Origin: a virus | Lineage: Duplodnaviria > Heunggongvirae > Uroviricota > Caudoviricetes | Direction: 5' to 3' (one strand) | IMG/VR virus record: IMGVR_UViG_2671180849_000019 | DNA length: 34,380 nt | Shown here: one piece after another, positions 1,452-33,327 of the stretch | Layout: the number at the start of each line of letters is the position of its first letter | Position numbering within the stretch: position 1 is the stretch's first letter | The notes under the pieces: generated by a model | Databases searched by the model: none | Told to the model about the DNA's origin: nothing | What the model saw: the letters and a program-made list of their open reading frames with translations, nothing else | Made by a program: the position numbers and the translations under genes

Positions 1452-1463
1452 CGTTTAAGAAAA
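1438..1463. other. DNA invertase crossover site (hix/gix/cix-like), TTCTCCCAAACC-AA-CGTTTAAGAAAA
   Basis: 26-bp imperfect dyad with central AA, resembling Hin/Gin recombination sites. Lies 50 bp upstream of the invertase gene and exactly at the repeat boundary. Confidence 0.6.
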
Positions 1464-1512
1464 TGCAGAGGTACCAGCTAACTGGCATCATCTCCGGTTT
1501 TTATTCAGGGGG

Positions 1513-2085: not shown

Positions 2086-2133
2086 ATCAGCATTATGTTG
2101 ATTATCCCTGCAAGCAGACAAATACCGTTATTT

Positions 2134-2151
2134 TGTGTGAATAACGACACA
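2134..2151 (+). promoter_or_regulatory. P2-type late promoter activator dyad (TGT-N12-ACA) upstream of FI
   Basis: TGTgtgaataacgacACA lies about 85 bp upstream of the FI start. P2 late promoters carry this dyad centred near -55 (Ogr-dependent). Confidence 0.45.
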
Positions 2152-2227
2152 ACTGCGCTTAGCTGTTTGTCAGGCACAATCACTTCAACATAGGGCGAAG
2201 CCTAATCCAATCAGGAGGTTCGCCACT

Positions 2228-3400
2228 ATGGCTCAGGATTACCACCACGGGGTGCGCGTTGTTGAAGTCAACGAAGGCACCCGATCTATTACCACGGTGA
2301 GCACCGCCATCGTGGGTATGGTCTGCACGGGCGATGATGCCGATGCAAAAATGTTTCCTCTTAATAAACCCGTGCTGATCACTGATGTGCTGACTGCCAG
2401 CGGTAAAGCGGGTGAGTCAGGTACTCTGGCCCGTTCGCTGGATGCCATCGCTGACCAGGCAAAACCCGTGACCATTGTTGTGCGTGTGCCGCAGGGTGAA
2501 ACGGAAGACGAAACCACGACCAATATCATCGGCGCAGTGACTGCTGAAGGTAAAAAAACAGGTATGAAAGCCCTGTTATCTGCCCAGTCACAGCTCGGCG
2601 TTAAACCGCGCATTCTCGGCGTGCCAGGCCACGACACCAAGGCGGTAGCTACTGAGTTGCTGAGCGTGGCGCAACGCCTGCGTGGATTTGCTTACCTGTC
2701 AGCGTATGGCTGCAAGACAGTGCAGGAGGCGATCACTTACCGCGAAAACTTCAGCCAGCGCGAAGGGATGCTGATCTGGCCTGACTTTACTGGTTGGGAC
2801 ACGGTGCTGAATGCCGAAGCAACGGCATATGCCACCGCCCGTGCGCTTGGTCTGCGCGCCAAAATTGACGAGCAGACCGGATGGCACAAAAGCCTGTCCA
2901 ACGTGGGCGTGAACGGTGTCACCGGAATTTCTGCAGATGTGTTCTGGGATCTGCAGGACCCGGCAACCGATGCAGGTCTGCTGAACCAGAACGACGTCAC
3001 CACGCTTGTGCGTAAAGACGGTTTCCGCTTCTGGGGTTCCCGCTGCCTGAGTGATGACCCGCTCTTTGCCTTCGAAAACTACACCCGCACGGCGCAGGTG
3101 CTGATGGACACGATGGCAGAAGCACACATGTGGGCGGTGGATAAACCGCTTAACCCGTCGCTGGCCCGCGACATTATCGAAGGTATCCGCGCCAAAATGC
3201 GCAGCCTGGTCAGTCAGGGCTATCTCATTGGTGGTGATTGCTGGCTGGATGAGTCGGTGAACGACAAAGACACGCTGAAAGCCGGAAAACTCACCATCGA
3301 CTACGACTACACGCCAGTGCCGCCACTTGAAAACCTGATGCTGCGTCAGCGCATCACCGATCAGTACCTGGTGAATTTCGCCAGCCAGGTCAGCGCGTAA
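2228..3400 (+). CDS. FI: tail sheath protein (gpFI)
   Basis: 390-aa ORF; [19 protein letters not shown]...[12 protein letters not shown]... and C-terminal ...[22 protein letters not shown] match P2 FI as recalled. AGGAGG RBS upstream. Confidence 0.95.
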
Positions 3401-3409
3401 GGGGACAAC

Positions 3410-3925
3410 ATGGCATTACCACGCAAATTAAAACACCTGAACCTGTTTAACGACGGGAACAACTGGCAGGGGATCGTTGAGTCGCTGACGCTGCCGAAAT
3501 TTACCCGCAAATATGAGAAGTATCGCGGCGGCGGAATGCCGGGTGCGGTGGATGTGGATCTGGGGCTTGATGACAGTGCGCTGGACACAGAATTTTCCAT
3601 TGGTGGTACTGAATTGCTGCTGTTTAAACAGATGGGTAAAGCCACGGTGGATGGCATCCAGCTGCGCTTTACCGGCTCTATTCAGCGTGACGATACCGGG
3701 GAAGTGCAGGCCGTGGAGCTTGTCGTGCGTGGACGTCACAAAGAAGTGGATTCCGGCGAGTGGAAGACGGGCGAAAGCAACACCACCAAAGTGACCAGTA
3801 CCAACAGCTACGCGAAGCTGACCATCAATGGTGAGGTGCTCTATGAAGTGGACCTTATCAACATGGTGGAAATTGTGGACGGTGTGGACCTGATGGAAGC
3901 GCACCGCAACGCCCTCGGCCTCTGA
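3410..3925 (+). CDS. FII: tail tube protein (gpFII)
   Basis: 171-aa ORF immediately downstream of FI, P2 FII-like in size and position. Confidence 0.9.
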   Translation: MALPRKLKHLNLFNDGNNWQGIVESLTLPKFTRKYEKYRGGGMPGAVDVDLGLDDSALDTEFSIGGTELLLFKQMGKATVDGIQLRFTGSIQRDDTGEVQAVELVVRGRHKEVDSGEWKTGESNTTKVTSTNSYAKLTINGEVLYEVDLINMVEIVDGVDLMEAHRNALGL

Positions 3926-3979
3926 TATATCTGAACGGCGCGGGATACCGCGCCAGAACCCAATTGACAGGACAGCAAA

Positions 3980-4282
3980 ATGAGCGATAAGCAGACTGAA
4001 AAGACCATTCAACTGGATACCCCCATCAAGCGCGGTAAAACAGAAATCACCGAAATTGTGCTGCGTAAACCGCAGTCCGGTGCGCTGCGCGGTACACGCC
4101 TGCAGGCCATTATGGATATGGATGTAAACGCGATGATGACCGTGATCCCCCGCATCTCCAGTCCGGCACTGACTGCACAGGAAATTGCAGAGATGGACCC
4201 GGCAGATCTCACTGCCATGTCGGTTGAGGTTGTCACTTTTTTGTTGAAGAAGTCGGTGCTTGCCGGTTTACCGACAGCCTGA
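3980..4282 (+). CDS. E: tail assembly chaperone gpE (zero-frame product)
   Basis: 100-aa ORF between FII and T, containing the slippery heptamer TTTTTTG at 4237-4243 near its 3' end. Confidence 0.85.
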   Translation: MSDKQTEKTIQLDTPIKRGKTEITEIVLRKPQSGALRGTRLQAIMDMDVNAMMTVIPRISSPALTAQEIAEMDPADLTAMSVEVVTFLLKKSVLAGLPTA

Positions 4283-4416
4283 CGGTTGACGATCTGGTGG
4301 CAGATATCGCCACCATTTTTCACTGGCCGCCATCCGTTACTGACGTTATGCCGCTGACCGAAGTGCTGGAATGGCGGTATAAAGCGATTCAGAGAAGCGG
4401 GGCCAACGATGAGTGA
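3980..4416 (+). CDS. gpE+E' fusion predicted from programmed -1 ribosomal frameshift at TTTTTTG (4237-4243)
   Basis: The -1 frame is open for 58 codons from the slip site (FVEEVGACRFTDSLTVDDL...EWRYKAIQRSGANDE) and stops at TGA 4414-4416, overlapping the T start at 4409. Same layout as P2 E/E'. Confidence 0.6.
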
Positions 4417-7400
4417 TAACAACCTGCGTCTGCAGGTCATTCTTAATGCGGTTGACAAGCTCACCCGTCCATTTCGATCTGCGCAGGCCAGTTCAAGAGA
4501 ACTGGCTGCTGCTGTCAAAAAATCCCGCGATGCAATAAAGCAGCTTGATCAGGCCGGGAGCAGTCTGGACAGCTTCCGAAAGCTGCAGGCAGAAAATCAG
4601 AAATTAGGCGACAGGCTGAACTATGCCCGCCAGCGTGCAAATTTGCTCAGTCAGGAACTGGGAGCGATGGGGCCGCCTTCGCAACGTCAGGTTGTTGCTC
4701 TGGGCCGTCAACGGCTGGCTGTTCAGCGCCTGGAAGAACGCCAGAAAAAGCTGCAGCAGCAGACGGCGCTTGTGCGTGCTGAACTGTACCGGGCGGGAAT
4801 TTCTGCGAAAGACGATGCGGGAGCAACTGCCCGTTTAGCCCGTGAAACATCACGTTATAACCAGGAACTTTCGAAACAGGAGGCGCGGCTGAAGCGACTG
4901 GGGGAAGCTCAGCGCAGGATGAATGCAGCGCGTGCCAGTTATGCCCGTTCGCTGGAGGTGCGTGATCGTATTGCAGGTGCCGGAGCCACCACCACGGCTG
5001 CAGGGCTGGCAATGGGTGCGCCAGTGATGGCGGCAGTAAAAAGCTATACCAGCATGGAAGATGCCATGAAAGGTGTGGCAAAGCAGGTCAATGGTCTGCG
5101 TGACGATAATGGCAACCGCACTGCACGTTTTTATGAAATGCAGGATGCCATCAAGGCTGCCAGCGAACAGTTGCCGATGGAAAACGGTGCGGTGGACTTC
5201 GCTGCACTGGTTGAAGGTGGTGCGCGCATGAACGTCGCAAACCCTGACGACAGCTGGGAAGATCAGAAACGTGACCTGCTGGCCTTCGCCAGTACGGCAG
5301 CAAAGGCGGCAACAGCCTTTGAGCTGCCAGCGGATGAACTGTCAGAAAGTCTGGGGAAAATCGCCCAGCTCTACAAAATCCCCACCCGCAATATTGAACA
5401 GCTCGGTGATGCGCTGAACTATCTGGATGATAACGCCATGTCGAAAGGGGCAGACATCATTGATGTGATGCAACGTCTGGGCGGTGTGGCTGACCGTCTG
5501 GATTATCGTAAAGCGGCGGCGCTGGGTTCCACCTTCCTGACACTGGGCGCTGCGCCAGAGGTTGCAGCCAGTGCAGCAAACGCGATGGTGCGTGAATTGT
5601 CCATTGCCACCATGCAAAGCAAGAGTTTCTTTGAAGGGATGAATCTGCTGAAACTCAATCCTGAAGTGATTGAAAAGCAGATGACGAAGGATGCGATGGG
5701 AACCATCCAGCGCGTGCTGGAGAAGGTAAACGCGCTGCCGCAGGACAAGCGCCTGTCTGCCATGACTATGTTGTTTGGTAAAGAGTTTGGCGATGACGCG
5801 GCGAAACTGGCAAACAACCTGCCGGAACTGCAGCGTCAGTTAAAACTGACAGCGGGCAATGATGCGCTCGGCTCCATGCAGAAAGAATCCGACATTAACA
5901 AGGATTCACTTTCTGCGCAGTGATTGCTGGTCAAAACCGGAGCGCAGAACACCTTCAGCAGCCTGGGCGAAACGCTGCGCCAGCCGCTGATGGATATTCT
6001 GTACACGGTGAAAAGCGTCACGGGGGCGTTGCGTCGCTGGGTGGAAGCTAACCCGGAACTGACAGGCACACTGATGAAAGCATCGGCTGTTGTGGCTGCG
6101 GTTACCGTCGGCCTCGGCACCTTAGCGGTGGCGCTGGCTGCAGTGCTGGGGCCGCTGGCAGTGATCCGTCTGGGATTCTCTGTGTTGGGTATCAAAACGT
6201 TATCTTCCGTTACGGCAGCAGTAACTCGAACCAGCAGCGCGTTGTCCTGGCTGGCTGGCGCACCACTGGCACTGCTGCGACGCGGGCTTGCTTCATCGGG
6301 CAACGCCGCAGGTTTACTTACTGCGCCGTTGTCGTCTTTGCGCCGCACGGCATCACTGACGGGAAATGTCCTGAAAACTGTAGCAGGTGCGCCGGTTGCA
6401 CTTTTGCGGTCTGGATTATCCGGTTTACGTGCGGTTGCTGTGATGTTTATGAATCCACTGGCAGCACTACGCGGCGGGCTGGCTGCCGCAGGCACGGTGC
6501 TGCGAGTACTGGCATCTGGTCCACTGGCGATGTTGCGCGTTGCCCTGTATGCCGTATCTGGTCTGTTAGGTGCTCTGCTCAGTCCGATAGGTCTTGTGGT
6601 TACTGCACTGGCGGGTGTGGCACTGGTTGTCTGGAAATACTGGCAACCCATCACCGCATTTCTCGGTGGCGTGGTGGAAGGATTCAAAGCGGCGGCAGGT
6701 CCCATCAGTGCAGCGTTCGAACCGCTTAAGCCTGTGTTCCAGTGGATTGGTGACAAAGTGCAGGCGCTGTGGGGCTGGTTTACTGATCTGCTGACGCCCG
6801 TTAAGTCGACTTCTGCCGAACTGCAGAGCGCAGCGGCAATGGGGCGACGATTCGGGGAGGCACTGGCGGAAGGGCTGAATATGGTTATGCATCCGCTGGA
6901 CTCCCTGAAATCTGGCGTTTCCTGGTTGCTGGATAAACTCGGCATTGTCAGTAAAGAGGCTGCAAAGGCGAAACTGCCGGAAAGCGTGACGCGTCAGCAA
7001 CCTGCGACGGTGAATGCAGACGGTAAAGTGATGATGCCATCGGGTGGTTTTCCGTCATGGGGATATGGCTTTGCGGGGATGTATGACAGCGGCGGCTATA
7101 TCCCGCGCGGGCAGTTTGGCATCGTCGGTGAAAACGGGCCGGAAATTGTTAACGGCCCGGCAAATGTGACCAGCCGGAGAAATACAGCTGCACTGGCTGC
7201 CGTTGTTGCCGGAATGATGGGCGTTGCTGCCGCGCCTGCAGAGCTTCCACCGTTGCACCCTTTGGCACTTCCCGCGAAAGGCGGCGAAGCGATGGTGAGT
7301 CGTGCAGCCACTGTGCCGCCCGTTCAACGGATTGAGGCACCGATGCAGATCATCATTCAGACGCAGCCAGGACAAAGTGCGCAGGATATTGCGCGGGAGG

Positions 7401-7486
7401 TGGCCCGCCAGCTTGATGAACGTGAACGTAGGCTGAAGGCAAAAGCCAGGAGTAACTACAGCGATCAGGGGGGATACGACGCATGA
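4409..7486 (+). CDS. T: tail tape measure protein (gpT-like), interrupted by an in-frame TGA at 5921-5923 (possible pseudogene, readthrough or sequence error)
   Basis: ORFs 4409-5923 and 5924-7486 are in the same frame, separated only by TGA. Coiled-coil-rich N half and Ala/Leu/Gly-rich hydrophobic repeats in the C half are typical of tape measure proteins. Gene sits between E' and U. Confidence 0.8.
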
Positions 7487-7968
7487 TGATGGTGCTGGGA
7501 TTGTACGTGTTTATGCTGCGCACCGTGCCGTATCAGGAGCTGCAGTATCAACGCAGCTGGCGACATGCGGCAAACAGCCGGGTAAACCGACGTCCGTCCA
7601 CGCAGTTTCTGGGACCGGACAACGACATGCTGACGCTTTCCGGTGTTCTTATGCCGGAGATAACAGGTGGCAGGCTGTCGTTGCTGGCACTGGAGCAGAT
7701 GGCAGAACAGGGGAAAGCATGGCCCCTGATTGAAGGCAGCGGCACGATTTATGGCATGTATGTGATTGAGGGACTGAATCAGACTAAAACGGAGTTTTTC
7801 CGCGACGGTATGCCGCGCCGGATTGAGTTCACCCTGTCGCTCAAACGGGTGGATGAATCCCTGTCCGATATGTTCGGTGATCTCAGTGCGCAACTGAATA
7901 ATCTGCAGGAAACGGCAACGTCTGCCTTAAGCGATATCAGTAAAACGGTGGGAGGGCTGCTGTCGTGA
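7483..7968 (+). CDS. U: tail protein gpU
   Basis: 161-aa ORF overlapping the T stop (ATGA), in the P2 gpU position. Confidence 0.9.
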   Translation: MMMVLGLYVFMLRTVPYQELQYQRSWRHAANSRVNRRPSTQFLGPDNDMLTLSGVLMPEITGGRLSLLALEQMAEQGKAWPLIEGSGTIYGMYVIEGLNQTKTEFFRDGMPRRIEFTLSLKRVDESLSDMFGDLSAQLNNLQETATSALSDISKTVGGLLS

Positions 7969-8305
7969 ATTTCAGCTCTGAACTGCTTAACAAAAGCAAC
8001 AAAACTCCGGCATTCAGCATCAGTATTGAGGGTAGGGATATCACCACTGTGCTGGATAACCGCCTGATGAGTCTGACTCTGACGGACAATCGGGGCTTTG
8101 AAGCAGACCAGCTTGATCTGGAGCTGGACGATGCCGACGGGAAAATCGTGCTGCCGCGCCGTGGTGCGGTCATTACGCTGGCGCTGGGCTGGAAGGGGCA
8201 GCCGCTTTTCCCGAAAGGGGCATTCACGGTGGACGAGATTGAACACACTGGCGCACCGGACCGCCTGACTATCCGGGCGCGAAGTGCTGATTTTCGGGAA
8301 ACGCT
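7965..8305 (+). CDS. D: tail protein gpD (late control D family), 3'-truncated by the N-gap
   Basis: ORF starts with start/stop overlap to U and is open for 113 codons until the N run at 8306. Confidence 0.8.
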
Positions 8306-8316
8306 NNNNNNNNNNN
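8306..8316. other. assembly gap (11 N)
   Basis: Literal run of n characters in the sequence. Confidence 1.
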
Positions 8317-21007: not shown

Positions 21008-21748
21008 TTACTCAATAGGTTCAAACTCATCCTGAGGAATCAGCGTCGATTGACAGGCTTGGCTTAGTACTCCTGATAATTTACATAATAACCGATAGTT
21101 ATGAGGAGCATCATCGCTAATCTTTTCGACCGTTAAAGTGATTGATTTTGGATCATCCAATAACATCTTCTTGATATCATTACTTAAATACCTAGGGCAG
21201 TAACCAACGATTTCAGCTGGTTTATCTGCACGAACGACAACAGCATCCCCATCGTATTCATTTTGAAGATCCAAGCAAAGACGCAAAATTTGCCCCGGTT
21301 TCAATTCAGATACACGAGCATTAGCTAAGCTATTTAAGTAACCAAGTCCATGTAAGAAGAAAAAATGCTCAAAGTTACCATCAGAATCAACATCAATTTT
21401 TTTGAAAATCTGCAGCTGATCAGTGCTTCGTAAGCCTCCCGAGCGAGCAAGAATATCGATAGGATTTACCTTATCTTCTTCAAATCCAAGCCATTTAATG
21501 AAACTCGGATACTCTGGACGTCTCGGTGATAAAAGGCGATTTTTAAAAAGAGGAAACAATTCTTCCGAAACATAAGTTTCACGAACATCACTCATGCCGC
21601 TAAACTTTGTAAATTTAGTAGATTTGAGAGCACCTTTGGTATACCTGAAAACATACCCCGATTTGCGCTCTTGCAAGTTACCAACAACATGCCAGTCTCT
21701 GGTATCTGGTGCCTGCCATGCGACGTAAACGGAGTTTGTATTAGTCAT
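21008..21748 (-). CDS. hypothetical protein with C-terminal HIRAN-like domain (predicted DNA 3'-end binding); second gene of the kinase cassette
   Basis: 246-aa ORF whose ATG overlaps the kinase stop (ATGA). Segment LRLCLDLQNEYDGDAVVVRADKPAEIVGYCPRYL fits the HIRAN signature as recalled. Confidence 0.6.
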   Translation of the reverse strand: MTNTNSVYVAWQAPDTRDWHVVGNLQERKSGYVFRYTKGALKSTKFTKFSGMSDVRETYVSEELFPLFKNRLLSPRRPEYPSFIKWLGFEEDKVNPIDILARSGGLRSTDQLQIFKKIDVDSDGNFEHFFFLHGLGYLNSLANARVSELKPGQILRLCLDLQNEYDGDAVVVRADKPAEIVGYCPRYLSNDIKKMLLDDPKSITLTVEKISDDAPHNYRLLCKLSGVLSQACQSTLIPQDEFEPIE

Positions 21749-22659
21749 TCTAGTAACCTTCTGCGATTTTCCATTACCATTAACGTTGCAAATCTACGTG
21801 CACTGTCGGATATACACGATGAAGGCACTTGGTTAAACACATCTGTAATGGAATCTTCTGTTAAAACGCTCAACTTACCTAACCAATGGTCGCGAGCGGC
21901 AACTCTCCCTTCAACTGCATGTTGAAATGCTTCAACGGTCAGCAAGGGCTTTTTATCAGTTTTTGCTTTGAATAGCTCAGAGCGAGCTTTTCTTACAAAA
22001 CATGGGATTTGTCGATTTTTATCTTTAGTATTAAGCCGTTCGTTACGCTCATCATCTAACATCTCCCTTCCTAAACTAGCGGCATGATCGTATGTTGGAC
22101 ACAAAAACTGCTCACCAGTTTCATTGTTAAGCATGATCGCCCAATTTTCATGATGGCGATCTTGATTACTCACAAGTGCATCGAGCATCAAATATCCACA
22201 AAATACATCTGCTGCATTTAGCCCGGTTAGATCATATACACTCGGAGGAGGCTTGATAGATTCCCTATCTAAACAACCCAATACCCTTGTGACAGTGTGT
22301 TCTCTGACCCTTACCGGCTTTTCCCCGGCTTGTAAAGGCCCAGGATAATCGAATGTCGAACTGTGAAGCACTTCATTTCCCATTACCATCCGGAAACCAG
22401 ATGGAATGATATTCTGAGTCACCACACCGAATCGACCATTGTATCGCGCCAAATCATAGCTAGCATGTGGAATGTTAAGCAAATGACATAACTCAGCAGC
22501 ACACTTTTCAGACCAATGCTCGCCAGTACCTGGCCTAGAGTACTTAAACAACTGCAAATTTACAGTGTCATCGGAGAAATAGAACCAAAACTTCTCTTTG
22601 GTTCCTAACTGTTCAAGATCGTTAGCTACGGGGCTAAGCTCTACCAATTGGTATGGCAT
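21745..22659 (-). CDS. HipA-like Ser/Thr kinase (short, HipT-sized, lacking the HipA N-terminal subdomain)
   Basis: Catalytic-loop motif LVSNQDRHHENWAIM and downstream LCPTYDHAASLG match the HipA D-x-H-x-x-N and P-x-YD motifs; Gly/Lys-rich N-terminal segment QLGTKEKFWFYF. Confidence 0.7.
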   Translation of the reverse strand: MPYQLVELSPVANDLEQLGTKEKFWFYFSDDTVNLQLFKYSRPGTGEHWSEKCAAELCHLLNIPHASYDLARYNGRFGVVTQNIIPSGFRMVMGNEVLHSSTFDYPGPLQAGEKPVRVREHTVTRVLGCLDRESIKPPPSVYDLTGLNAADVFCGYLMLDALVSNQDRHHENWAIMLNNETGEQFLCPTYDHAASLGREMLDDERNERLNTKDKNRQIPCFVRKARSELFKAKTDKKPLLTVEAFQHAVEGRVAARDHWLGKLSVLTEDSITDVFNQVPSSCISDSARRFATLMVMENRRRLLE

Positions 22660-22818
22660 CTGACATCCCTGTTTAGCGGATTATGAATAAGTTAGGTTCC
22701 ATTTTATCCAAACATTGTCAAATACTCTAAGATTTATTAGATGATAGAGCGATACTGTATGCATGTCCAGCAATCAAATCAATATATAACTCTTATATGA
22801 CTTAGCGCGCGCTCGTAT

Positions 22819-22830
22819 CCCCGCCACGCC
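22819..22830 (-). other. possible cos-related sequence (GGCGTGGCGGGG on the minus strand)
   Basis: 12-nt exact match to the 5' part of the 186 cohesive end as I recall it (GGCGTGGCGGGGAAAGCAT); the remaining 7 nt do not match. Confidence 0.25.
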
Positions 22831-22852
22831 TGCCCGCTTTATGTAGTGGTTT

Positions 22853-22954
22853 TCATGCACCTGCATGACATAAGCAAAAGCACGCCAGTTCTGGCTGACT
22901 TCAGCAAAAACGATCCTCAAACGATCATGCGATCTCATGCGTCATAGTCATGCG
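22853..22954. promoter_or_regulatory. array of TCATGC(A/G) motifs (one 16-bp palindrome plus three direct repeats) overlapping a cluster of three GATC sites
   Basis: Palindrome TCATGCAccTGCATGA at 22853-22868; TCATGCG at 22925, 22935 and 22948; GATC at 22912, 22923 and 22931, all in the intergenic region between the two divergent cargo operons. Confidence 0.3.
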
Positions 22955-23254
22955 CTGCCAAGGGAAGCGTAAATCCGTATCTGAATGACTGCTGAAAAGC
23001 GAATCATACGGGTTTACAAAGATGAAAGTTCGCTGTGAGCGAGAAGCGAACCTTGCAACTTTGTTGGCACAGTTTTAACACCAATTTTTTGAGGATAGCT
23101 AGAAAACTTGTGGCATAAAGGATCAGTTTCCCGATCGAACTTTTTATCAAGAAGGGCTCATAGCAATCGCCAGAAGAAGTGATGTTAAAGTATTGAGCTC
23201 GGCGTTAAGATTAAATAAATTACAGACTAATCCAATGTTTTGTGGAAGGATAAG

Positions 23255-24298
23255 ATGGCAGTCAAGCGCGCATACTACGGTAACGATAGTGACCGAGACT
23301 ACTTAGAGCGGATATTTCAGTCAGCTAACATTAACTTTCTCATCGGATCAGGTGCATCCCTCCCAGCGATTAAAGTACTGGGGACAATCGAAACGGATCT
23401 TCAGCAGCTTATTAATGATGAACAGGAAGATGAATACTTAAGGATGGCAGCTGACTTTTTGTCAGATGTTTGGCTACCTCATGAATGCATGTTGAAGCGC
23501 GGCTACGGCACCCCCTTCGCACCTCAGGTGATCACCGATTTGGAATGTACCCGTGCAAATTATGATGCATTTATGTCTTCACTGGAAAAGATACTGACCC
23601 GCCGCCGAACTGGCCTACTTCCGAGGCGTATTAACGTTTTTACAACTAATTATGATTTATTCATCGAAGAAGCTGCCACACGTAATAACAATATTCTTTT
23701 TAATGATGGATTCAATAGAAGAGCAAGTATTTTGGGAGATGCGGAATTTGATGCGGGTAGCTTTAATCATTCTGTAAGTGCAACCGGAAATCTGTATAAT
23801 TATAAAGTTGAGCTTCCTACTGTTAACCTTATAAAACTTCATGGTTCGCTCTCTTGGCAGCATTCTAAAGGGAAAATCATTTATCGTATTGCAGATATTA
23901 AGCCGCTTGACTTTCCCACCCTAGCCGAAATGAAAGGATGGGTACTTGCTCATGCACTTATTCTTCCACGTAAGGAGAAGTTTAAAGAGACTCTACTACA
24001 GAACGTTTATTATGATTTACTGAGAACCTATTCCAACGAGCTTGATAAAGAAGCAACTTTACTAATTGTCTTTGGGTTCTCGTTTGCTGATGAGCACATT
24101 GAAACGATAACTAAAAAAGCCCTGCGCAACGCCACCCTGAAGCTACTGATCTTTGCTTTCGATGAGGCCAGTGTTAACGGCTTTATGGAGAAATTTCGGG
24201 ATTACTCAAACGTAGAGATTATTTATCGGCCGGGAAGAAATGTTGATTTTCCGGTAATGAATAACATTATCACGTGCTATCTGGGAGGCTCGAGATGA
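23255..24298 (+). CDS. SIR2-family NAD+-binding protein (defence-associated; SIR2 component of a SIR2-HerA pair)
   Basis: Motifs NFLIGSGASLP (Gly-rich NAD loop), VFTTNYDLFIE and LIKLHGSL (catalytic His). Start taken at ATG 23255 after GGAAGGA; the ORF track starts at TTG 23240. Confidence 0.85.
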   Translation: MAVKRAYYGNDSDRDYLERIFQSANINFLIGSGASLPAIKVLGTIETDLQQLINDEQEDEYLRMAADFLSDVWLPHECMLKRGYGTPFAPQVITDLECTRANYDAFMSSLEKILTRRRTGLLPRRINVFTTNYDLFIEEAATRNNNILFNDGFNRRASILGDAEFDAGSFNHSVSATGNLYNYKVELPTVNLIKLHGSLSWQHSKGKIIYRIADIKPLDFPTLAEMKGWVLAHALILPRKEKFKETLLQNVYYDLLRTYSNELDKEATLLIVFGFSFADEHIETITKKALRNATLKLLIFAFDEASVNGFMEKFRDYSNVEIIYRPGRNVDFPVMNNIITCYLGGSR

Positions 24299-26154
24299 GC
24301 AGGCATTTTACTGAAGAGGAAGCGGTGCTCCGTATAGGCGAAGTCTGTGAGGTTTCTGGACGCGCTGTGACAATTTTGGTCGATAAAAACAAAAATCTCA
24401 GTGACTTGTTTTATCAGGGAAAAGTTCTAAGAAATGTATCAGTGGGTAGCTTCATTGAGATCAAAAAAGGTTTCATGAGCCTGATCGGCAAGGTTGAAGC
24501 GGAACGAATCATTGAGGAAAAACATCTCGCTGGGAGCGGCAGTGATGCCTGGCGATATCGGCGATACCTGACCTCTACTCTTACGGGTTACATTGATCGT
24601 ACTGGTTGCTTCATTGGTGGTTCGCGTGAACTACCTCTCATCGGCAATGAAGTCTTCGTGGTAACTGAAGAGATGATACAAACGGTTCATCAGATAGCTA
24701 ATGCAGACGAAACTGTAATGAGGTTTACTCGTACAGATCTTGAAGATATTGAAATTGCACTACCAATCAATGGTCTTATTAATTCCCACATTGCCATTTT
24801 CGGTAATACAGGCAGCGGAAAGTCAAATACCCTAGCCGCGCTATACAAAGCAGGTATTGCCCAAGTTAAACATATTCTCGGCAACCACTTTAGTGAAAGA
24901 TGCAAATTTATTCTATTCGACTTTAATGGAGAATATACTGCCCCACGCTGTATTACTGACGAGAAGACGGTTTATAATCTCAACACGCACCATGCAAATG
25001 GTGACAAACTTCCTCTACCCAGAGAGGTTCTACTTGAGCATGATATGCTCTCAGTTCTAACCGATGCAACAGACAAAACACAGAAACCTTTCCTGAAGAG
25101 AGTTCTTGAGTTTCGCAAGAAAGTGATGACTGCTGATAATCCTCTTGAGTTTATGCGCAATATCCTGAAGAAAAAAGTCAGACAAAATCTCTTTAGTAGC
25201 GACAAACCCAAATGCGATACTATAAATCAGTTTCTTAGCCCAATTTTCAAAGATGACCCAGAACTTATATCTGATCTTGAGTATCATTCAACTGCATATA
25301 AATGGAAATTGAGGGGTGGTAGTATTTTCAATACAGAAGCTGATACTGAGCGCTCCTATCTATTCAGTCTTGCAAGCAATTTTTTATTTAAAACTGATAT
25401 GATTGAAGAACTGTTGGACTTTATGTACTTACAGTTAATACAGGAATATTTATCTAACAAGTCTAACCCTGAACATATTTCACCAGTTATAAATAGAATG
25501 AGTGCTAACCGTAAAGATATAGCCAAAATATTTGATACTTCCGGACAGTCTGACTTTTGGGGTGAACATAATTTCACGGTTGTGAATCTAAATATGGTTA
25601 ATATAACCATGAAAAAAACGCTTCCTCTTTTGATAGCCAAGTGGGCTTACAATATGAAGAAAATGTCTACAGAGAAATCTACACTGCACATCATTATAGA
25701 TGAAGCCCACAATATTTTGTCTAATACTTCTTTTCGGGAAACGGAAAGTTGGAGAGATTATCGTCTGGAAACTTTTGAGGAAATCATAAAGGAGGGGAGA
25801 AAATTTGGAGTTTTTATCACAATTTCCAGTCAACGCCCTAATGATATATCGTCGACAATCATATCCCAAGCACACAATTATTTTATTCATCGCCTTATTA
25901 ATCAGAATGATCTGTACGCAATTGAAAAATCAGTATCATATATAGATCGACTGACTGAAGAGTCGATTCCAACGCTATCTACAGGAACCTGTATTTTTAG
26001 TGGTATCGTCTGCCCCATGCCGCTCAAATTAAGGGTAGCTGAACTTCCAATTGAAGAAAAACCTAAGAGTAATACTATTTCCTTCAACGATTTAATACCT
26101 GAGAGGCTGGGAGAGGATGACCAGAGCGACTACGTAATAACCAGCCCTCACTAA
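24295..26154 (+). CDS. HerA/FtsK-like ATPase (HerA component of a SIR2-HerA defence pair)
   Basis: Walker A FGNTGSGKSNT and Walker B LHIIIDEAHNI; ATG overlaps the SIR2 stop (ATGA) with a GGGAGG RBS. Confidence 0.85.
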   Translation: MSRHFTEEEAVLRIGEVCEVSGRAVTILVDKNKNLSDLFYQGKVLRNVSVGSFIEIKKGFMSLIGKVEAERIIEEKHLAGSGSDAWRYRRYLTSTLTGYIDRTGCFIGGSRELPLIGNEVFVVTEEMIQTVHQIANADETVMRFTRTDLEDIEIALPINGLINSHIAIFGNTGSGKSNTLAALYKAGIAQVKHILGNHFSERCKFILFDFNGEYTAPRCITDEKTVYNLNTHHANGDKLPLPREVLLEHDMLSVLTDATDKTQKPFLKRVLEFRKKVMTADNPLEFMRNILKKKVRQNLFSSDKPKCDTINQFLSPIFKDDPELISDLEYHSTAYKWKLRGGSIFNTEADTERSYLFSLASNFLFKTDMIEELLDFMYLQLIQEYLSNKSNPEHISPVINRMSANRKDIAKIFDTSGQSDFWGEHNFTVVNLNMVNITMKKTLPLLIAKWAYNMKKMSTEKSTLHIIIDEAHNILSNTSFRETESWRDYRLETFEEIIKEGRKFGVFITISSQRPNDISSTIISQAHNYFIHRLINQNDLYAIEKSVSYIDRLTEESIPTLSTGTCIFSGIVCPMPLKLRVAELPIEEKPKSNTISFNDLIPERLGEDDQSDYVITSPH

Positions 26155-26167
26155 TTAACAAAGTGCT

Positions 26168-26187
26168 GAAGCGGTAACGACCGCTTC
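26168..26187. terminator. possible terminator hairpin between convergent HerA and DinI-like genes
   Basis: GAAGCGGT-aacg-ACCGCTTC perfect 8-bp stem, but without a clear U-tract. Confidence 0.3.
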
Positions 26188-26298
26188 TAGCACAAAGCGG
26201 ACGATCACTTATCAAAATGCCCGCCCACCTTACGCCTCGTTTCACTCGTTGCCCAAACTAGCCCCCATCAGAATGAATCCTCCTGGAGGCAACGTTTC

Positions 26299-26532
26299 TT
26301 AATGCAGCCAGCTGTCGTCTTCCCACACTTTCTGCATAATTTTCATCACTTGTTTTCTTTCTTCATCCAGTTGCAGTCCGGTCAGTTCCACACCGTTAGA
26401 GCTACCTTTGCGGATACGAATTACCGTTTTGGGATACAGGGGGCGCAGATTGCGGTAAAGCTCGGATTCAAGGGCGTCCAGGGTAGACTGGCTAATCTTC
26501 TGCTCTTTATCGATCATTATTTCAATGCGCAT
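26299..26532 (-). CDS. DinI-like protein (Tum/Orf97-like SOS module)
   Basis: MRIEIMIDKEQKISQSTLDALESELYRNL...WEDDSWLH resembles E. coli DinI as recalled. Own RBS GAGGTG. The ORF track starts 24 codons upstream. Confidence 0.75.
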   Translation of the reverse strand: MRIEIMIDKEQKISQSTLDALESELYRNLRPLYPKTVIRIRKGSSNGVELTGLQLDEERKQVMKIMQKVWEDDSWLH

Positions 26533-26542
26533 AAAAGTCACC

Positions 26543-26731
26543 TCAACTGATGACATCCATTGAGCGGTTGTATTCGTGGGTTCTGATTTTTGCCATGAGT
26601 TCATCAGTCAATTCAGAAACCCACTGCAGAGCCAGCCCCTTCTCTTCATCACTACACTCACTAGCCGCTACAAGCTTAAGAAAAAAATCAATGCGCTGGA
26701 GCTTCAAAGACTCCAAAAAATAGTCCTGCAT
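26543..26731 (-). CDS. small hypothetical protein, first gene of the LexA-boxed operon
   Basis: 62-aa ORF with AGGAGG RBS, 43 bp downstream of a consensus LexA box; its stop overlaps the RBS of the DinI-like gene. Confidence 0.5.
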   Translation of the reverse strand: MQDYFLESLKLQRIDFFLKLVAASECSDEEKGLALQWVSELTDELMAKIRTHEYNRSMDVIS

Positions 26732-26773
26732 CTTTCCTCCTATGACACCAAAGCGATACTGTATACATAACCA

Positions 26774-26789
26774 CTGTTTATATTTACAG
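26774..26789 (-). promoter_or_regulatory. LexA operator (SOS box), CTGT-N8-ACAG
   Basis: CTGTttatatttACAG with an AT-rich spacer, upstream of the small ORF and DinI-like gene; a degenerate half-site (TATACAGTA) lies nearby. Confidence 0.6.
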
Positions 26790-26883
26790 TATATAATAAT
26801 CTTACTGATGTAAAACGTTTTTTTACGTTCATCAGCCAGAAATGCCTGGTATTATTAAGAGCACGAATTGTTAACCCGCGTAA

Positions 26884-29298
26884 TTAATACAGGTTCCGCC
26901 ACTTATCATCTTCCTGCAAACGCTGGTTCCGATAGAAGATACGCAGGCCTGCTCCTGACGGAATACTGCCGCCGCGAAGGAGTAAATCGACCTCTTTCTC
27001 GCTGCCATCAAATCCCCTGGACTTCAGTTCATACACGAGCTGCTGTCGCTGATGATCTGTAATTCGCTGTTTGTAGTCTTTACGCCGTTTCGGTTTCACC
27101 AGGCGTAACCTTGCTGCCAGTTCCCGGCGCTCTTTTTTGCTCATACTGTGCAGGTAATCGTGCAACTCCTTGTCATCCATACGGGTGATATCAGTTCTGG
27201 TATCTCCATCAGCTGATTTGTCTTTCCCTTGTTGGTACAAATTTTCAGCAAGGGGACAGTTATTGCCACGAGTCCAAGGGGCGCAAGCGCCCTGGTCGGC
27301 TGCCGCCTCCTGAACGTCAACGGCCTTACGAACCATTTTCCACTTCACTGCATGAGTGCAGATCTTGCCCTCTGCAATGGGTGACCAGATGCCATAAATA
27401 CGAATGCCGTGATCGCCATAGGCTGTCGGCTCTTCGTTGATTTCATAAGCGGTTCTGATCAAGTGATATTTGCGGGGAACCAACACGCCGCCCTGCTTCA
27501 TAATGTAGGTGGCAAAACAGCCAGCATCAGCAGCAGCCAGAATGGCATCAAGGCGCGGGTTATCCAGTACCGGAGCACCTGCTTTTTTGTCACCCTGTTG
27601 CCTTGCCGCCTGACCAGCCAGCAATCGCAGTTCACGGTAAGCCTGACGCCCCGGAATGCCAAAGAAGCGGAATTGCTGAACACGATGCAGAGACGCCCAG
27701 ACATTAACGTATTCAGCGTTATCACGCAGAGATTTACCCGTTTCCTTGCTGATCTCGCCAGCCAGACCACGCCCGTCAATGTTCTTACTGATATATTTCG
27801 CGATGTAGCTTGTCGGCGTTCCTTTGCGCGGGTTAATCAACTCAGACTTAAAGCGCGGCCCAGTGTTATTGCCCAGCTCCTCGCGGTCTTCACGGATGGC
27901 AAACTTACGCAGTAATGCAGTGATGGCGCGGCGGTCTTTTTTGCGCATAAAACACAACAGGTGCCAGTGAACTGTACCGTCATGATGCGGCTCAGCCACC
28001 CGCACGCCATACCAGCGCAATCCGGCTTTGTGCATCGCCTTACGAAATGCAGCAAACATGCCGACCAGATAGTCGCTGCTTTGTCTTACCGTCGAGTTTG
28101 TCCAGGTCGGGTTGGGTCTGCCGTTATTGAGCGTGGAATGGAAACGCGACGGACAGGTGATAGTGTAGAAAACGGCGCAGTCACTGCGCATTTCCGCGAT
28201 AAGCTCCAGACCTTTAACACAGGCCATCATCTCATTGCGGCGATGCGCCGGGTTGCTGCTGCTGGCGTTTACCACATCTTCCATATCCAGCGTGTCGCCG
28301 TCTTCGTTCACCAGTTCATGAGAACGGAAAAACTCCAGCGACTTACGGCGCTGCTCACGTTTATGCATCACGGCTTCATAGCTGACATAGGGGGATGCTT
28401 TTTTGCTGACCAGGCAGACAGCACGCAACTGCTCTTCCCGCCATTCACAACGCATCTTCCATAATTTCCGATACCACCAGTCGGCACACAACATACGCGC
28501 CAACGAACCCGGAATGAGTTCATAGGGCACGGGTTTACGGCGGTTTCTTTTCCGACGGAGTTGCTCAAACGCAGGTGGGATGACATCCAGACGCAGGGTT
28601 TCCGCTGCCACCTTTTCCCATGTCTTGCGGATTTCTTCTGGCTTAACGTCATCGGTGGCATACAAATCACCACAAGCTGCATCAAGGCACATACTCATAT
28701 GCGCAGCTACCAGGGTGGACAGGCGTTTCACCTGATCCTGACTCATTTCAGGCAGGATCAGCAGGCCGTCCAGCCCTTCATGGCTTGCCATAAAGCGAAA
28801 AGATGCAGATAGCTGACTGTCGCGTACATGCTCCAGTCGTTCCAGACATGGCTTAATCGTCTCACGTAAATAGCGGGAATAAGCCTTTGGCTTGCCCAGG
28901 CTGCTGAAGTATTCAATACGTTGCATCAGCGGCTTGCTGATATGGGAAGGCTGGGCGTTGACGTCCGCCAGAATGACCATGTCTGAATTAAAACGCTGCT
29001 GCTCATGCGCCAGCTTTGCCCGGCTAATGAGCTTATCCTGCTCCATTTCGCGCTGGACAGGATCACGTGATTCATTAAAGAAATAACGCTCCCAGACCTG
29101 ATCACTCAGTGCCTCGCGGCGCAACTGTTCCTGCTCGTTATCGGCAGCGTACAGAGTGATCAGGTTTGAAAGCGTAGAAACCGGCGCAACTTCCGCCGGG
29201 TCCAGATAAGGGTTAATGGCCTTTTTCGGGCTGTTCCATGAGAATGCTGCAGCAGCCTCGTTAAAGCCGCAGCAGTTGTTCATATCGGCATGACTCAT
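26884..29298 (-). CDS. A: replication initiation protein gpA (rolling-circle endonuclease)
   Basis: 804-aa ORF in the P2/186 A position, upstream of the tum-like module. Confidence 0.85.
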
Positions 29299-32362: not shown

Positions 32363-32932
32363 GTGGATTTCAATAGCGGCGGTAAGAAAGCCATAGAACG
32401 TTTAGTTGAAGCATATGGGTTCGGTACCCGTCAGGCTCTATGTGATCATTTAGGTGTTTCTAAGAGCACCATGGCAACGCGCTATATGCGTGATATTTTT
32501 CCAGCAGATTGGGTAATCCAGTGCGCCCTTGAAACGGGCACCTCGCTTAATTGGCTAACAACAGGGCATGGTTCAAAGCAAGCATCAGCAAATACAAATA
32601 CTATAGAAGTAGAAAAATATTTATTGTCTGATGGAGCATTGCAGAAAGACGGTTTTTATATTTTTGATAAGGGATTTCTACCCTCTACGTTTAAAAAACC
32701 TTTTGTCATCACAGATAACAATTCTGAATTTATTTGTGATAAAGAATTTGATGATATACGTGATGGTAAATGGGTAATAAGTATTGATGGCGAAATAACT
32801 ATCCGTGACATTACTCGTTTACCCGGTGGAAGAATCTTCGTCGAGGGTGGAAACAGAGCCTTCGAATGCAAGATAGAAGACATTGAAATAATTGGTAAAA
32901 TTATAAGTTTAACAGTCAAGTATGTTAAATAG
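32363..32932 (+). CDS. cI: CI immunity repressor (186 type); start uncertain
   Basis: EAYGF...CALETGTSLNWLTTGHG and a C-terminal domain resembling 186 CI. GTG at 32363 follows GGAGGA; the ORF track extends to GTG 32276. Confidence 0.75.
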   Translation: MDFNSGGKKAIERLVEAYGFGTRQALCDHLGVSKSTMATRYMRDIFPADWVIQCALETGTSLNWLTTGHGSKQASANTNTIEVEKYLLSDGALQKDGFYIFDKGFLPSTFKKPFVITDNNSEFICDKEFDDIRDGKWVISIDGEITIRDITRLPGGRIFVEGGNRAFECKIEDIEIIGKIISLTVKYVK

Positions 32933-32947
32933 TACCGGGAGGAAACT

Positions 32948-33139
32948 ATGCTTGGTAAGGTATTTTTTGTGGTTTTGTCATGTTCTTTGTTATTAAACCC
33001 ACTAACTACCTATGCTAGAAATTATCCCTGCTCAGGGAAAAAGGGAGGTGTTTCTCACTGTACCTCAGATGGCAAATTCGTTTGCAATGATGGAACTATT
33101 AGTAAATCCAAAAAAATCTGTACTAAAAACTCACGATAA
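32948..33139 (+). CDS. small secreted cysteine-rich protein (candidate lysogeny-expressed moron)
   Basis: GGGAGG RBS; N-terminal signal peptide [23 protein letters not shown] followed by about 40 residues with 4 Cys and many Lys. Sits between cI and int. Confidence 0.5.
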
Positions 33140-33327
33140 CTTTTGCTTTTATATCTGCGTCTAAAATAAAAATGAGCCGCAGGTTAACCGCAAAAGTTAC
33201 ATGCTCACATAGCAAAAAGAATAGCCAACTTAATTATGGCTTCAGTGAGATGTATGGTCGTAGGATTTCATACATTGACACTGGTTATACATACAGTGAA
33301 AATGCTCTCTACTGGAGGGCATTTTTT

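Follow-up and report, generated by a model that had tools for sequence, protein, structure and literature searches.

The minus-strand genes tumA and tumB, which lie between the replication gene A and a block of cargo genes in a stretch of 34,380 bp (hereafter the window, i.e. the whole DNA analysed), are taken, with a probability of about 0.9 for the mechanism as a whole, to form the SOS induction operon of an Escherichia coli prophage of Fels-2-like type (Felsduovirus, P2/186 family). As such, the module would be the already characterised DNA-damage switch of Fels-2/186-type prophages of the P2 family. A sequence-only reading of the window had proposed an SOS-inducible 186-type prophage with a LexA-boxed Tum/DinI module, and the near-identical copies of the module in the Salmonella prophage Fels-2 and in DuoHS, a prophage of E. 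coli HS, support this proposal. Identity, homology and operator conservation were computed here; for the dependence on LexA and Tum and for the induction by damage, the source is published work on near-identical or homologous copies.

In the proposed mechanism, host LexA bound to a double operator would cover, in the lysogen, the promoter from its -10 hexamer through the start site and ~30 nt into the leader, and tumA and tumB would remain silent. Following DNA damage, active RecA would bring about LexA self-cleavage and the tum promoter would fire. TumA would then bind the 186-type repressor CI stoichiometrically and stop its operator binding, and removal of CI would free the early lytic promoter (apl, cII and replication genes) for lytic development. 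TumB, a DinI homologue, would be co-expressed with TumA, and transcription of the operon would end at a hairpin just ahead of the convergent SIR2-HerA genes.

The prophage and its repressor

By synteny and high identity, the prophage is assigned to the Fels-2-like P2-family phages (Felsduovirus). Outside the cargo and tail-fibre regions it is 90-98% identical to DuoHS, and a cos-like site is found near 22808-22826. The tum module adjoins gene A (26884-29298, minus strand) on its downstream side, at the border of the variable region near cos, and the tum promoter comes next after this gene. Two contigs make up the window, with 11 N (8306-8316) between them; an apparent 6-kb inversion of tail genes relative to DuoHS was rejected as a product of this scaffold join.

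The immunity repressor of 186 type is encoded by cI (32363-32932, plus strand; probable start GTG 32363 after GGAGGA). Its product matches Phage_CI_repr (PF07022) and Phage_CI_C (PF16452), with a Peptidase_S24 match below the cut-off of that model, and is 87% identical to DuoHS CI, the differences being concentrated in the N-terminal two-thirds. Because this identity is 87% and not 100%, we infer the cognate pairing of TumA with CI, its presumed target. Self-cleaving repressors stimulated by RecA use an Ala-Gly or Cys-Gly dipeptide, and the CI translation, read by eye, contains neither. The resemblance of CI, Apl and CII to their phage 186 counterparts, put forward in the sequence-only reading, stands for CI (33% identity) and for CII (69% identity, PF06892 match); Apl belongs to the Cox-like excisionase/repressor family phrog_575, but resembles 186 Apl only weakly in direct comparison. 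Fels-2 differs at this point, its CI being only 38% identical to that of the window (by our own count, ~70% for the DNA-binding N-terminal domain as against ~22% for the C-terminal one). TumA may recognise the N-terminal domain, which is the conserved one.

The outcome of induction is a separate matter. The tape-measure gene (4409-7486) contains an in-frame TGA (5921-5923) where DuoHS has TGG, so induction need not yield infectious phage. In addition, the completeness of genes H and D cannot be judged because of the scaffold join. Both features would fit an intact switch in a defective prophage, in which derepression would lead to replication and perhaps lysis in the absence of infectious particles, the switch persisting as a host-level SOS cassette. 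This is considered unlikely, though well worth keeping in mind: the lone TGA may be a sequencing error, and the rest of the prophage aligns with the inducible DuoHS at the identities given above. It bears, moreover, on what induction produces and not on the nature of the tum module, and is therefore compatible with the SOS induction operon proposed here.

TumA, the putative antirepressor

The operon consists of a 62-aa ORF, tumA (26543-26731), and a gene for a 77-aa DinI-family protein, tumB (26299-26532), both on the minus strand. The Shine-Dalgarno sequence of tumA, GGAGG (26736-26740, minus strand; read from the sequence), is invariant in relatives. The tumB ATG (26532) stands 10 nt past the tumA TGA, in a different frame, with a ribosome-binding site that overlaps the tumA stop; the tumB stop is at 26299-26301. 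The one terminator-like match given by the generic promoter scan, at the tumA/tumB junction (26537-26554), was rejected as a terminator, being no stabler than shuffled sequences (z=-1.0).

TumA is identical at 61 of 62 positions to the DuoHS protein ECHS_RS04495, with T51S as the single difference, and likewise at 61 of 62 to Fels-2 STM2728. The DuoHS gene is the tum of the Phollow study (PMC12055606), whose published delta-tum primers match the window at 26729-26751 and 26523-26545 and fuse the ATG and TGA of this ORF exactly. In that study, neither DuoHS with the in-frame tum deletion nor DuoHS in a lexA(Ind-) host gave lysis after mitomycin C. The deletion may have exerted a polar effect on tumB, and the text and supplementary tables consulted contain no complementation of it. 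Apart from TumA, DuoHS shows identity or near-identity in the promoter, in both LexA boxes, in the ribosome-binding site and at the tumB junction, and its module occupies the same site after gene A; the cargo that follows tumB is different.

TumA is also homologous, as judged by intermediate sequences and profiles, to the N-terminal (non-DinI) part of 186 Tum. The argument takes this route because direct comparison is negative: no BLASTP alignment was obtained between the 62-aa protein and 186 Tum, and tblastn with Tum residues 1-70 against all phage records retrieved Eganvirus-type Tum only, neither the Fels-2 nor the PSP3 type. The intermediate P0147 is 42% identical to TumA of the window and 41% identical to Tum residues 5-43 (E=7e-11), and hhalign of the TumA family with 186 Tum aligns residues 5-44 with residues 5-44 at 94.5% probability (E=7.6e-8). 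TumA falls into phrog_698, a family also matched by Tum residues 1-70 (E=6.7e-6), and the PHROG cross-hits are reciprocal. Profiles of Pfam, NCBIfam, PADLOC and PDB gave no match to TumA, for which AlphaFold2 predicts a two-helix hairpin (pLDDT 88.5). In 186, Tum is made from the LexA-regulated promoter p95 and sequesters CI (PMC7708051); it binds CI and blocks operator binding (Shearwin 1998, as cited in PMC3121763 and PMC7708051). By homology, TumA would make a comparable contact with the CI of the window.

TumB and the architecture of related operons

The DinI-like nature of the second product, noticed in the sequence-only reading, is confirmed by a full-length match to Pfam DinI (PF06183, E=6.6e-23; 81.3 bits against a cut-off of 24.2) and by an end-to-end alignment with E. 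coli DinI (PDB 1GHH, E=2.7e-6 over residues 1-75). TumB remains below the cut-off of the NCBIfam dinI equivalog (42.7 bits against 111) and is therefore regarded as a phage paralogue, not as dinI itself. It is 41% identical to residues 71-145 of 186 Tum (E=3e-24), and its equivalents would be the C-terminal half of that protein (Tum77) and PSP3 TumB. Most likely, TumB tunes the activity of RecA filaments and, through it, how long the SOS signal lasts.

The SOS operon of 186 comprises p95, a LexA site, Tum (146 aa) and Orf97, and resembles that of the window in its location after gene A and in the CI/Apl/CII type of switch. Its Tum is a single 146-aa polypeptide, whereas the window has two genes, the variant documented in PSP3 and Fels-2; even so, the 77-aa DinI part of 186 Tum is also made separately, from an internal GTG. 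Further, 186 has one LexA box where the window has two overlapping ones. No Orf97 homologue was found in the window. The proposal that STM2726 of Fels-2 is one, which would make the operon reach into the cargo, was rejected, the two proteins being unrelated.

In both Fels-2 and PSP3, tum is split in two, and in PSP3 the antirepressor activity resides in the upstream gene (PMC3121763). Together with the near-identity of TumA to DuoHS tum, this supports the suggestion in the sequence-only reading that the 62-aa gene is the antirepressor part. PSP3 has the same layout, an upstream gene for ~60 aa, described as 'UV induction of prophage', followed by a DinI homologue of 77 aa, the two being annotated TumA and TumB; its TumB is ~78% identical to that of the window (own count from translations). 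The PSP3 TumA, in contrast, belongs to phrog_1993 with marginal similarity (E=0.0022 to 0.0039), and PSP3 has a single, 186-like LexA box and a longer CI. Fels-2 is closer: the module DNA is 97.5% identical to the region with its tum genes, the same double operator is present, and its TumB counterpart is annotated as similar to PSP3 TumB. The Fels-2 operon STM2726-2728 acts like a member of the DNA-damage regulon, the mutagen MX raising STM2727 expression 5.5- to 14.8-fold (PMC2225428), and the lethality of a lexA-null mutation has been attributed to Fels-2 (Bunny et al. 2002, as cited in PMC3121763). It differs from the window in that its cargo gene STM2726 is on the same strand and is listed in one differentially expressed operon with STM2727 and STM2728, while the cargo of the window is convergent. 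The same logic has been described for GfoA, GftA and FsoA of the Gifsy and Fels-1 prophages, where a LexA-repressed operon for a small antirepressor and a DinI homologue is set against a non-cleavable repressor (PMC3121763); gene order is reversed there, dinI coming first, and the likeness concerns the described logic, not a comparison of proteins.

The roles of the two products could conceivably be exchanged, with the DinI-like TumB as the effector of induction (for example by altering RecA activity toward CI) and TumA as an accessory or as a requirement for tumB expression. The short junction lends itself to this view, since a tumA deletion could affect tumB translation through the overlapping ribosome-binding site, and tumB is much better conserved than tumA between PSP3 and the window phage. 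However, the DuoHS deletion leaves an ATG-TGA and the whole tumB ribosome-binding site in place and still abolishes induction; the activity in PSP3 maps to the other gene; a DinI gene is absent downstream in 18 of 20 LexA-boxed TumA relatives; the homology of TumA to 186 Tum sits in the non-DinI half; and CI lacks the dipeptides mentioned above. The exchange of roles is accordingly judged highly improbable, and TumA is retained as the putative antirepressor.

Promoter and double operator

The motif CTGT-N8-ACAG occurs once in the window, at 26774-26789 (CTGTTTATATTTACAG, with an AT-rich spacer), and 43 bp separate the edge of this core at 26774 from the first base of the tumA ATG (26731), which confirms the SOS box reported at this distance upstream of the two-gene operon. 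The bare motif is not rare, with 0.44 matches expected per window and at least one in 34 of 100 shuffles. The 20-mer CACTGTTTATATTTACAGTA (26772-26791), by contrast, has 3 mismatches to the consensus TACTGTATATATATACAGTA and was equalled in none of 100 shuffles. When scored with a rough position matrix derived from 17 E. coli operators, this box 1 (minus strand TACTGTAAATATAAACAGTG) reaches 23.2 bits; when the window was simulated 500 times with a first-order Markov model, sites reaching 16 bits arose 0.038 times per window and sites reaching 21 bits never. In 75 of 80 related loci from IMG/VR, the score of box 1 is 20 bits or more.

A second box, absent from the account given in the sequence-only reading, overlaps box 1 by 5 nt. 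This box 2 (26757-26776; minus strand CAGTGGTTATGTATACAGTA) scores 16.3 bits, as against 15.4 bits for box 2 of ColE1 with the same matrix, and at least 13 bits in 66 of the 80 loci. Across 53 distinct upstream sequences the operator arms are kept and the central 3 nt of box 2 are hypervariable. Judged by its sequence, the operator is an overlapping double SOS box of colicin type, an addition to known biology, and we infer that LexA occupies both boxes.

As in the operators of the colicin family (cea of ColE1, cloacin, pesticin), the two 20-bp LexA boxes share CAGTG. The 35-bp operator TACTGTAAATATAAACAGTGGTTAT...TACAGTA resembles those operators: a 54-nt query made of its Fels-2 version and the immediate flanks agrees at 88-90% of positions over ~42 nt with the cea, cloacin and pesticin (pst) promoters, and was matched in 1118 plasmids. 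The double box of colicin genes binds two LexA dimers, with very tight repression (PMC2994835). Unlike the tum operator, those of the colicin family drive a bacteriocin and not a prophage antirepressor, and the -35 region and leader are unrelated; in ColE1 the boxes apparently lie downstream of the promoter hexamers (own reading), whereas the -10 hexamer of the window is probably inside box 1. The tum double operator may represent a control cassette that bacteriocin plasmids also use, one that would fire late and be very tightly repressed.

The left arm of box 1, TACTGT (26786-26791), is the probable -10 hexamer of the tum promoter, the counterpart of 186 p95, and the probable -35 hexamer TTTACA (26809-26814, minus strand) is located 17 nt upstream of it. 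The annotated p95 is laid out alike (TTCACA, 18 nt, TACTGT), with its -10 TACTGT likewise serving as left arm of the LexA box. No difference in promoter or operator separates the window, DuoHS and Fels-2, and TTTACA is nearly invariant in the 80 IMG/VR loci. In the interval from gene A to tumA, a generic sigma-70 scan reported no promoter because only 8 of 12 hexamer positions match; the annotated hexamers of p95 also give 8 of 12 by our own count, and the missed call probably reflects the threshold of the scan. Upstream of TumA relatives from other genera, a strong LexA box is found in 17-18 of 20 cases at a distance of 34-56 nt, with otherwise different promoters; its conservation spans the Enterobacterales and is a further addition to known biology. 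Between the gene A stop and the tum promoter, an imperfect inverted repeat (CTGATGAACGT-A7-ACGTTTTACATCAG; 26805-26835, minus strand) has no T-run and, as read from the sequence, is largely kept in relatives.

The opposing view, in which the LexA-like sequence is a chance match or a non-functional relic and the operon is constitutive or otherwise controlled, may draw on the frequency of the bare motif and on the uncalled promoter, but it is hardly credible given the quality of the 20-mer, its coincidence with the annotated LexA site of p95, its retention in close and distant loci whose flanks and box 2 centre vary, the mutagen induction of the Fels-2 counterpart and the block of DuoHS induction in the lexA(Ind-) host.

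Operon end, cargo genes and other LexA-like boxes

The SOS operon probably ends at a terminator-like hairpin (26153-26193, minus strand) with a 13-bp stem, one bulge and the loop CGUU, followed by UUUGUUAAUU and separated by 9 nt from the convergent herA stop. Folding of 26140-26305 (minus strand) gives z=-4.04, with the hairpin in both the MFE and the centroid structures. A hotspot of variable accessory (cargo) genes starts directly past tumB, similarity breaking 0-8 nt from the tumB stop in 73 of 80 loci; this is an addition to known biology.

The idea that the defence cargo is derepressed by DNA damage along with the prophage holds only in part. SIR2-HerA is encoded on the opposite strand, converges with the tum operon across the terminator-like hairpin, and has no LexA box that could be found in its upstream region. 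Such derepression is plausible only for the PDC-M03 pair, a candidate defence pair made up of a HipA-like kinase and a HIRAN protein, by way of a separate LexA-like box ~110 nt upstream. This box is conserved, as is one at int, where the 17-nt spacer between the -35 and -10 hexamers of the promoter is itself a LexA-like box. A small LexA regulon of three separate promoters (tum double operator, int and PDC-M03), in place of one SOS switch, is put forward tentatively, at slightly less than even odds. If it exists, DNA damage would co-ordinately release the antirepressor, the supply of integrase and one cargo system. No description of the int box, the PDC-M03 box or a colicin-type operator in the tum promoter was found in the searchable literature.

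Distribution and significance

The module is present in 1125 of 5426 complete E. coli genomes, about a fifth. RefSeq and phage records call TumA a 'hypothetical protein' or, erroneously, a 'levan regulatory protein', and the PHROG family to which it belongs carries the label 'unknown function'. In itself the finding matters little, since it re-identifies the Fels-2/186-type SOS/Tum switch, genetically tested in a copy that differs by one residue. The double colicin-type operator and the int and PDC-M03 boxes could be of modest interest for the timing of induction and the expression of cargo in P2-like prophages. The practical value lies in annotation: as TumA lacks a Pfam or NCBIfam model although its module is so frequent, a TumA profile combined with its LexA box would automatically flag SOS-inducible prophages of the P2 family.

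The split tum module and its tested counterparts

The window carries the split form, as in PSP3 and Fels-2, of the 186-type LexA/Tum induction module, and in this sense the module is already known; the single fused Tum polypeptide of 186 itself is the only feature that it does not share. It comprises two minus-strand genes, tumA (26543-26731, 62 aa), with its ATG at 26731 and a GGAGG ribosome-binding site, and tumB (26532-26299, 77 aa), which starts ten nucleotides past the tumA TGA and whose product belongs, as had been predicted, to the DinI family (PF06183, E=6.6e-23; DinI structure PDB 1GHH, E=2.7e-6). About 105 nt past tumB, a 13-bp hairpin followed by UUUGUUAAUU (26193-26153, minus strand, fold z-score -4.0) resembles a terminator, and herA, which is convergent, has its stop codon 9 nt past it.

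The 651-bp tum region is 97.5% identical to prophage Fels-2, where its two genes are STM2728, a hypothetical protein, and a DinI-family gene whose annotation notes similarity to PSP3 TumB. It is matched in 67 phage records and in 1125 of 5426 complete E. coli genomes, including four at 100%. The same module is present in DuoHS, a prophage of E. coli HS. Window TumA shares 61 of 62 residues with ECHS_RS04495, the tum gene of DuoHS, and likewise with STM2728, and the promoter and both LexA boxes are invariant among the three prophages except at three central positions of box 2. For DuoHS, the Phollow study describes an in-frame delta-tum at ECHS_RS04495 and reports that mitomycin-C lysis and viral foci are abolished by this deletion and likewise by lexA(Ind-) (PMC12055606). 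The delta-tum primers NHR24/NHR28 join the ATG to the TGA of exactly the 62-aa ORF, keeping the tumB ribosome-binding site, and they match the window at 26729-26751 (one mismatch) and 26523-26545 (no mismatch). In Salmonella TA100, the mutagen MX raised STM2727, the Fels-2 counterpart of tumB, 5.5- to 14.8-fold, and STM2726-STM2727-STM2728 is listed as a differentially expressed operon (PMC2225428). A stop codon splits tum in two in Fels-2 and PSP3, and in PSP3 it is the upstream gene that has antirepressor activity (PMC3121763); the PSP3 record names the genes tumA ('UV induction of prophage') and tumB.

The sequence-only reading of this DNA as an SOS-inducible 186-type prophage is thereby borne out: lexA and tum dependence (DuoHS) and DNA-damage inducibility (Fels-2 with MX) have been reported for near-identical or homologous copies, and identity with these tested copies, homology and operator conservation are observed directly.

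State of the prophage

The tape-measure gene (4409-7486) contains an in-frame TGA (5921-5923; TGG, Trp, in DuoHS) that splits the 1025-aa protein into 504 + 520 codons; either the prophage is defective or the TGA is a sequencing error. The first of these would not conflict with LexA/Tum induction. The window is a scaffold, two contigs being joined by 11 N at 8306-8316. Positions 1-8305, which hold the tail-fibre assembly genes, the invertase and the genes from sheath to the 5' part of D, run opposite to the rest when compared with DuoHS; since the N join interrupts genes H and D, a genuine inversion was rejected in favour of a scaffolding artefact. A DNA invertase (1513-2085, phrog_125) adjoins tail-fibre and tail-fibre-assembly segments in opposite orientations (1-429 plus, 401-994 and 994-1491 minus), inside one of which the window starts, and 1-2085 looks like an invertible host-range cassette.

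TumA as the probable antirepressor

BLASTP gives no alignment between the 62-aa protein and 186 Tum, and tblastn with 186 Tum(1-70) does not reach the Fels-2-type phages. The connection is made by a TumA relative (P0147) that is 42% identical to window TumA and 41% identical to residues 5-43 of 186 Tum (E=7e-11), and by the alignment of 28 TumA family sequences, which matches 186 Tum with 94.5% probability (E=7.6e-8, residues 5-44 on 5-44). Independent support for this homology is provided, at the level of sequence families, by PHROG: window TumA belongs to phrog_698 (E=3.6e-38) and touches phrog_8554 and phrog_1993, 186 Tum(1-70) matches phrog_1993, phrog_8554 and phrog_698 (E=6.7e-6), and PSP3 TumA falls in phrog_1993. 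PHROG gives 'unknown function' for each of the three, and no Pfam or NCBIfam model covers TumA in the libraries searched. The common core motif, read from the sequences, is C-x6-[IL]-A-L-x-[LW]-[IV]-[AS]-[ED]-[IL]. From the family alignment, AlphaFold2 models a hairpin of two helices, 2-23 and 28-61 (pLDDT 88.5), and places the conserved Cys where the chain turns; among solved structures, none is related to TumA by sequence. Together with the delta-tum of an ORF identical at 61 of 62 residues, the profile and PHROG links uphold the suggestion that the first gene is the antirepressor part.

Run exhaustively against 1.84 billion cluster representatives, phmmer returned 66 TumA relatives, nearly all short (most 35-130 aa), none being a Tum-like fusion of ~146 aa with a DinI domain; a precomputed Pfam domain was absent from all TumA relatives listed in a word-indexed search. 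Of 20 loci from other Enterobacterales genera that encode TumA relatives, retrieved with an alignment of query proteins only 34-48% identical to window TumA, 17-18 have a strong LexA box (20-28 bits) 34-56 nt 5' of the start codon, in several unrelated promoter contexts; the exceptions are one replaced upstream region and one 1-nt deletion in the box spacer. A DinI gene follows the TumA relative in only two of these loci, so the LexA-boxed small antirepressor appears as the conserved core and the DinI gene as an optional passenger. TumB as the induction effector is unlikely given this distribution and a delta-tum confined to the 62-aa ORF.

Promoter and operator

In minus-strand order, gene A, encoding the replication endonuclease (26884-29298), comes before the tum promoter and is separated from tumA by an imperfect inverted repeat (26805-26835) and by probable promoter hexamers TTTACA (26809-26814) and TACTGT (26786-26791) with a 17-nt spacer, all read from the sequence. 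LexA box 1 (26772-26791) begins with TACTGT and overlaps box 2, CAGTGGTTATGTATACAGTA (26776-26757), by 5 nt. The annotated p95 promoter of 186 has the same design (TTCACA, 18 nt, TACTGT); there TACTGT serves as -10 hexamer and at the same time forms the left arm of the LexA site. A generic promoter scan called no promoter at the tum promoter, a result of little weight because the hexamers of annotated p95 match at 8 of 12 positions too (our count).

The predicted SOS box is in place: CTGT-N8-ACAG occurs once in the window (26774-26789), its core edge 43 bp from the tumA ATG. The bare motif is unremarkable (0.44 matches expected; at least one in 34 of 100 shuffles), but the 20-mer 26772-26791 has at most three mismatches to TACTGTATATATATACAGTA, which none of 100 shuffles equalled. 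With a rough position matrix built from 17 E. coli LexA operators, whose bit scores are approximate, box 1 scores 23.2 bits (training sites, 12.9-26.9). Four sites of at least 16 bits, namely both tum boxes and one box each at int and PDC-M03A, are found in the window versus 0.038 expected from 500 first-order Markov simulations, which gave no site of at least 21 bits. Among 80 IMG/VR loci with identical TumA (53 distinct upstream sequences), box 1 reaches at least 20 bits in 75 and box 2 at least 13 bits in 66; variation falls mainly on three central positions of box 2 and the leader 3' of it, its arms CAGTGG and TACAGT being mostly kept. An inert tum box, for which the commonness of the bare motif and the silent scan might speak, is unlikely in view of such conservation. 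One of the 80 loci and a Klebsiella michiganensis locus have an unrelated GC-rich sequence, abutting the leader, in place of the tum promoter and LexA box, and may be natural variants without SOS control.

By its sequence, the tum operator (26757-26791) is a colicin-type double overlapping SOS box. A 54-nt query over the Fels-2 operator found matches in 1118 plasmids; its alignments to the regions 5' of cea (ColE1), cloacin and pesticin, ~43 nt from these genes, extend over ~42 nt with 88-90% identity, and box 2 of Fels-2 is identical to that of ColE1. In colicin operons, two LexA dimers bind overlapping boxes, giving very tight repression and expression in a small fraction of cells (PMC2994835). 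186 and PSP3 have a single LexA box each. By analogy with colicins, the double operator would make the tum promoter tighter, and probably later-firing, than p95. In the literature searched, which did not include the main Fels-2 paper, a double operator in tum promoters is not reported.

CI and the other switch genes

The expected likeness of CI, Apl and CII to 186 holds for CI, which has both 186-type CI domains at 33% identity, and for CII (69%); Apl falls in a Cox-like excisionase/repressor PHROG, its direct similarity to 186 Apl being barely present. CI (32363-32932, probable start GTG 32363) is 87% identical to DuoHS CI, the last ~70 residues being identical. No Ala-Gly or Cys-Gly dipeptide was seen in its translation, read by eye, and its Peptidase_S24 match is below cut-off, as would fit a repressor that depends on an antirepressor and does not cleave itself. 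Window and Fels-2 TumA share 98% identity, yet CI identity is only 38% (Fels-2 cI, L006:2192-2824), being ~70% for the N-terminal DNA-binding domain and ~22% for the C-terminal one (our count). This single comparison therefore suggests that TumA may recognize the N-terminal domain of CI, or cross-react between immunity types. A 63-aa ORF between cI and int (32948-33139) encodes several cysteines and an N-terminus like a signal peptide; DuoHS has it too (ECHS_RS23290), and Fels-2, where cI and int adjoin, lacks it.

Other LexA-like boxes and the cargo

The true int start is ATG 33328, and 5' of it TTGACA-CTGGTTATACATACAGT-GAAAAT (33276-33304) forms a sigma-70-like promoter element whose 17-nt spacer is a LexA box (33279-33298; 21.6 bits, 23.7 in DuoHS). 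All 29 distinct upstream sequences from 80 related IMG/VR int loci keep the -35 (TTGAC/TTGAT), both arms (CTG[GT], ACAG) and a -10-like hexamer rich in A/T, with variable box spacers and upstream flanks; the -35 hexamer and arms are also kept in Klebsiella phages 4LV2017 and KP12. This pattern suggests that the int promoter may be LexA-repressed. A small hairpin between this element and the ATG has a T-run and takes in the int ribosome-binding site.

A defence hotspot is known in P2-like phages between gpA and gpQ, beside cos (PMC9122126), and the tumB-to-portal interval corresponds to it: in 73 of 80 loci, similarity ends 0-8 nt from the tumB stop, and 32 different sequences follow. The cargo consists of SIR2-HerA (23240-26154, plus strand) and PDC-M03A/B (21008-22659, minus strand), a HipA-like kinase and a HIRAN protein forming a candidate defence pair. 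Between them, near 22808-22826, is a cos-like site, identified by its resemblance to the 186 cos sequence. It falls in a ~90-nt stretch (22804-22895; reverse complement of the cos-like sequence, GGCGTGGCGGGGATACGAG) that separates the two slots and shows conservation across 1399 E. coli genomes.

The proposal that the cargo is derepressed by DNA damage stands in part. SIR2-HerA converges on the tum operon from the far side of the terminator-like hairpin, and its upstream region shows no LexA-like site; derepression is therefore unsupported for this system, although its copy number could possibly rise during replication. PDC-M03A has a LexA-like box of its own, TACTGTATGCATGTCCAGCA (22753-22772, 19.6 bits), 94 nt 5' of its start (22659, minus strand), the minus strand reading TTGATT-N17-TACAGT. 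Of 38 distinct upstream regions of PDC-M03A relatives in IMG/VR, 34, from relatives with 67-100% identity, have a box of 16.8-24.8 bits at -109 to -133, with conserved arms and variable spacers, and the box is lacking only in relatives at 56-58% identity; the PDC-M03 pair therefore looks SOS-regulated.

Mechanism and significance

LexA would repress tumA-tumB, presumably by occupying both boxes, until its RecA-stimulated cleavage allows their transcription; TumA would then sequester CI through a putative contact surface and so permit early lytic transcription, while TumB would modulate RecA. We give this full chain a probability of about nine in ten. Two points keep some value beyond the known module: TumA bears no annotation in any library searched, and the operator is of the colicin-type double-box kind.
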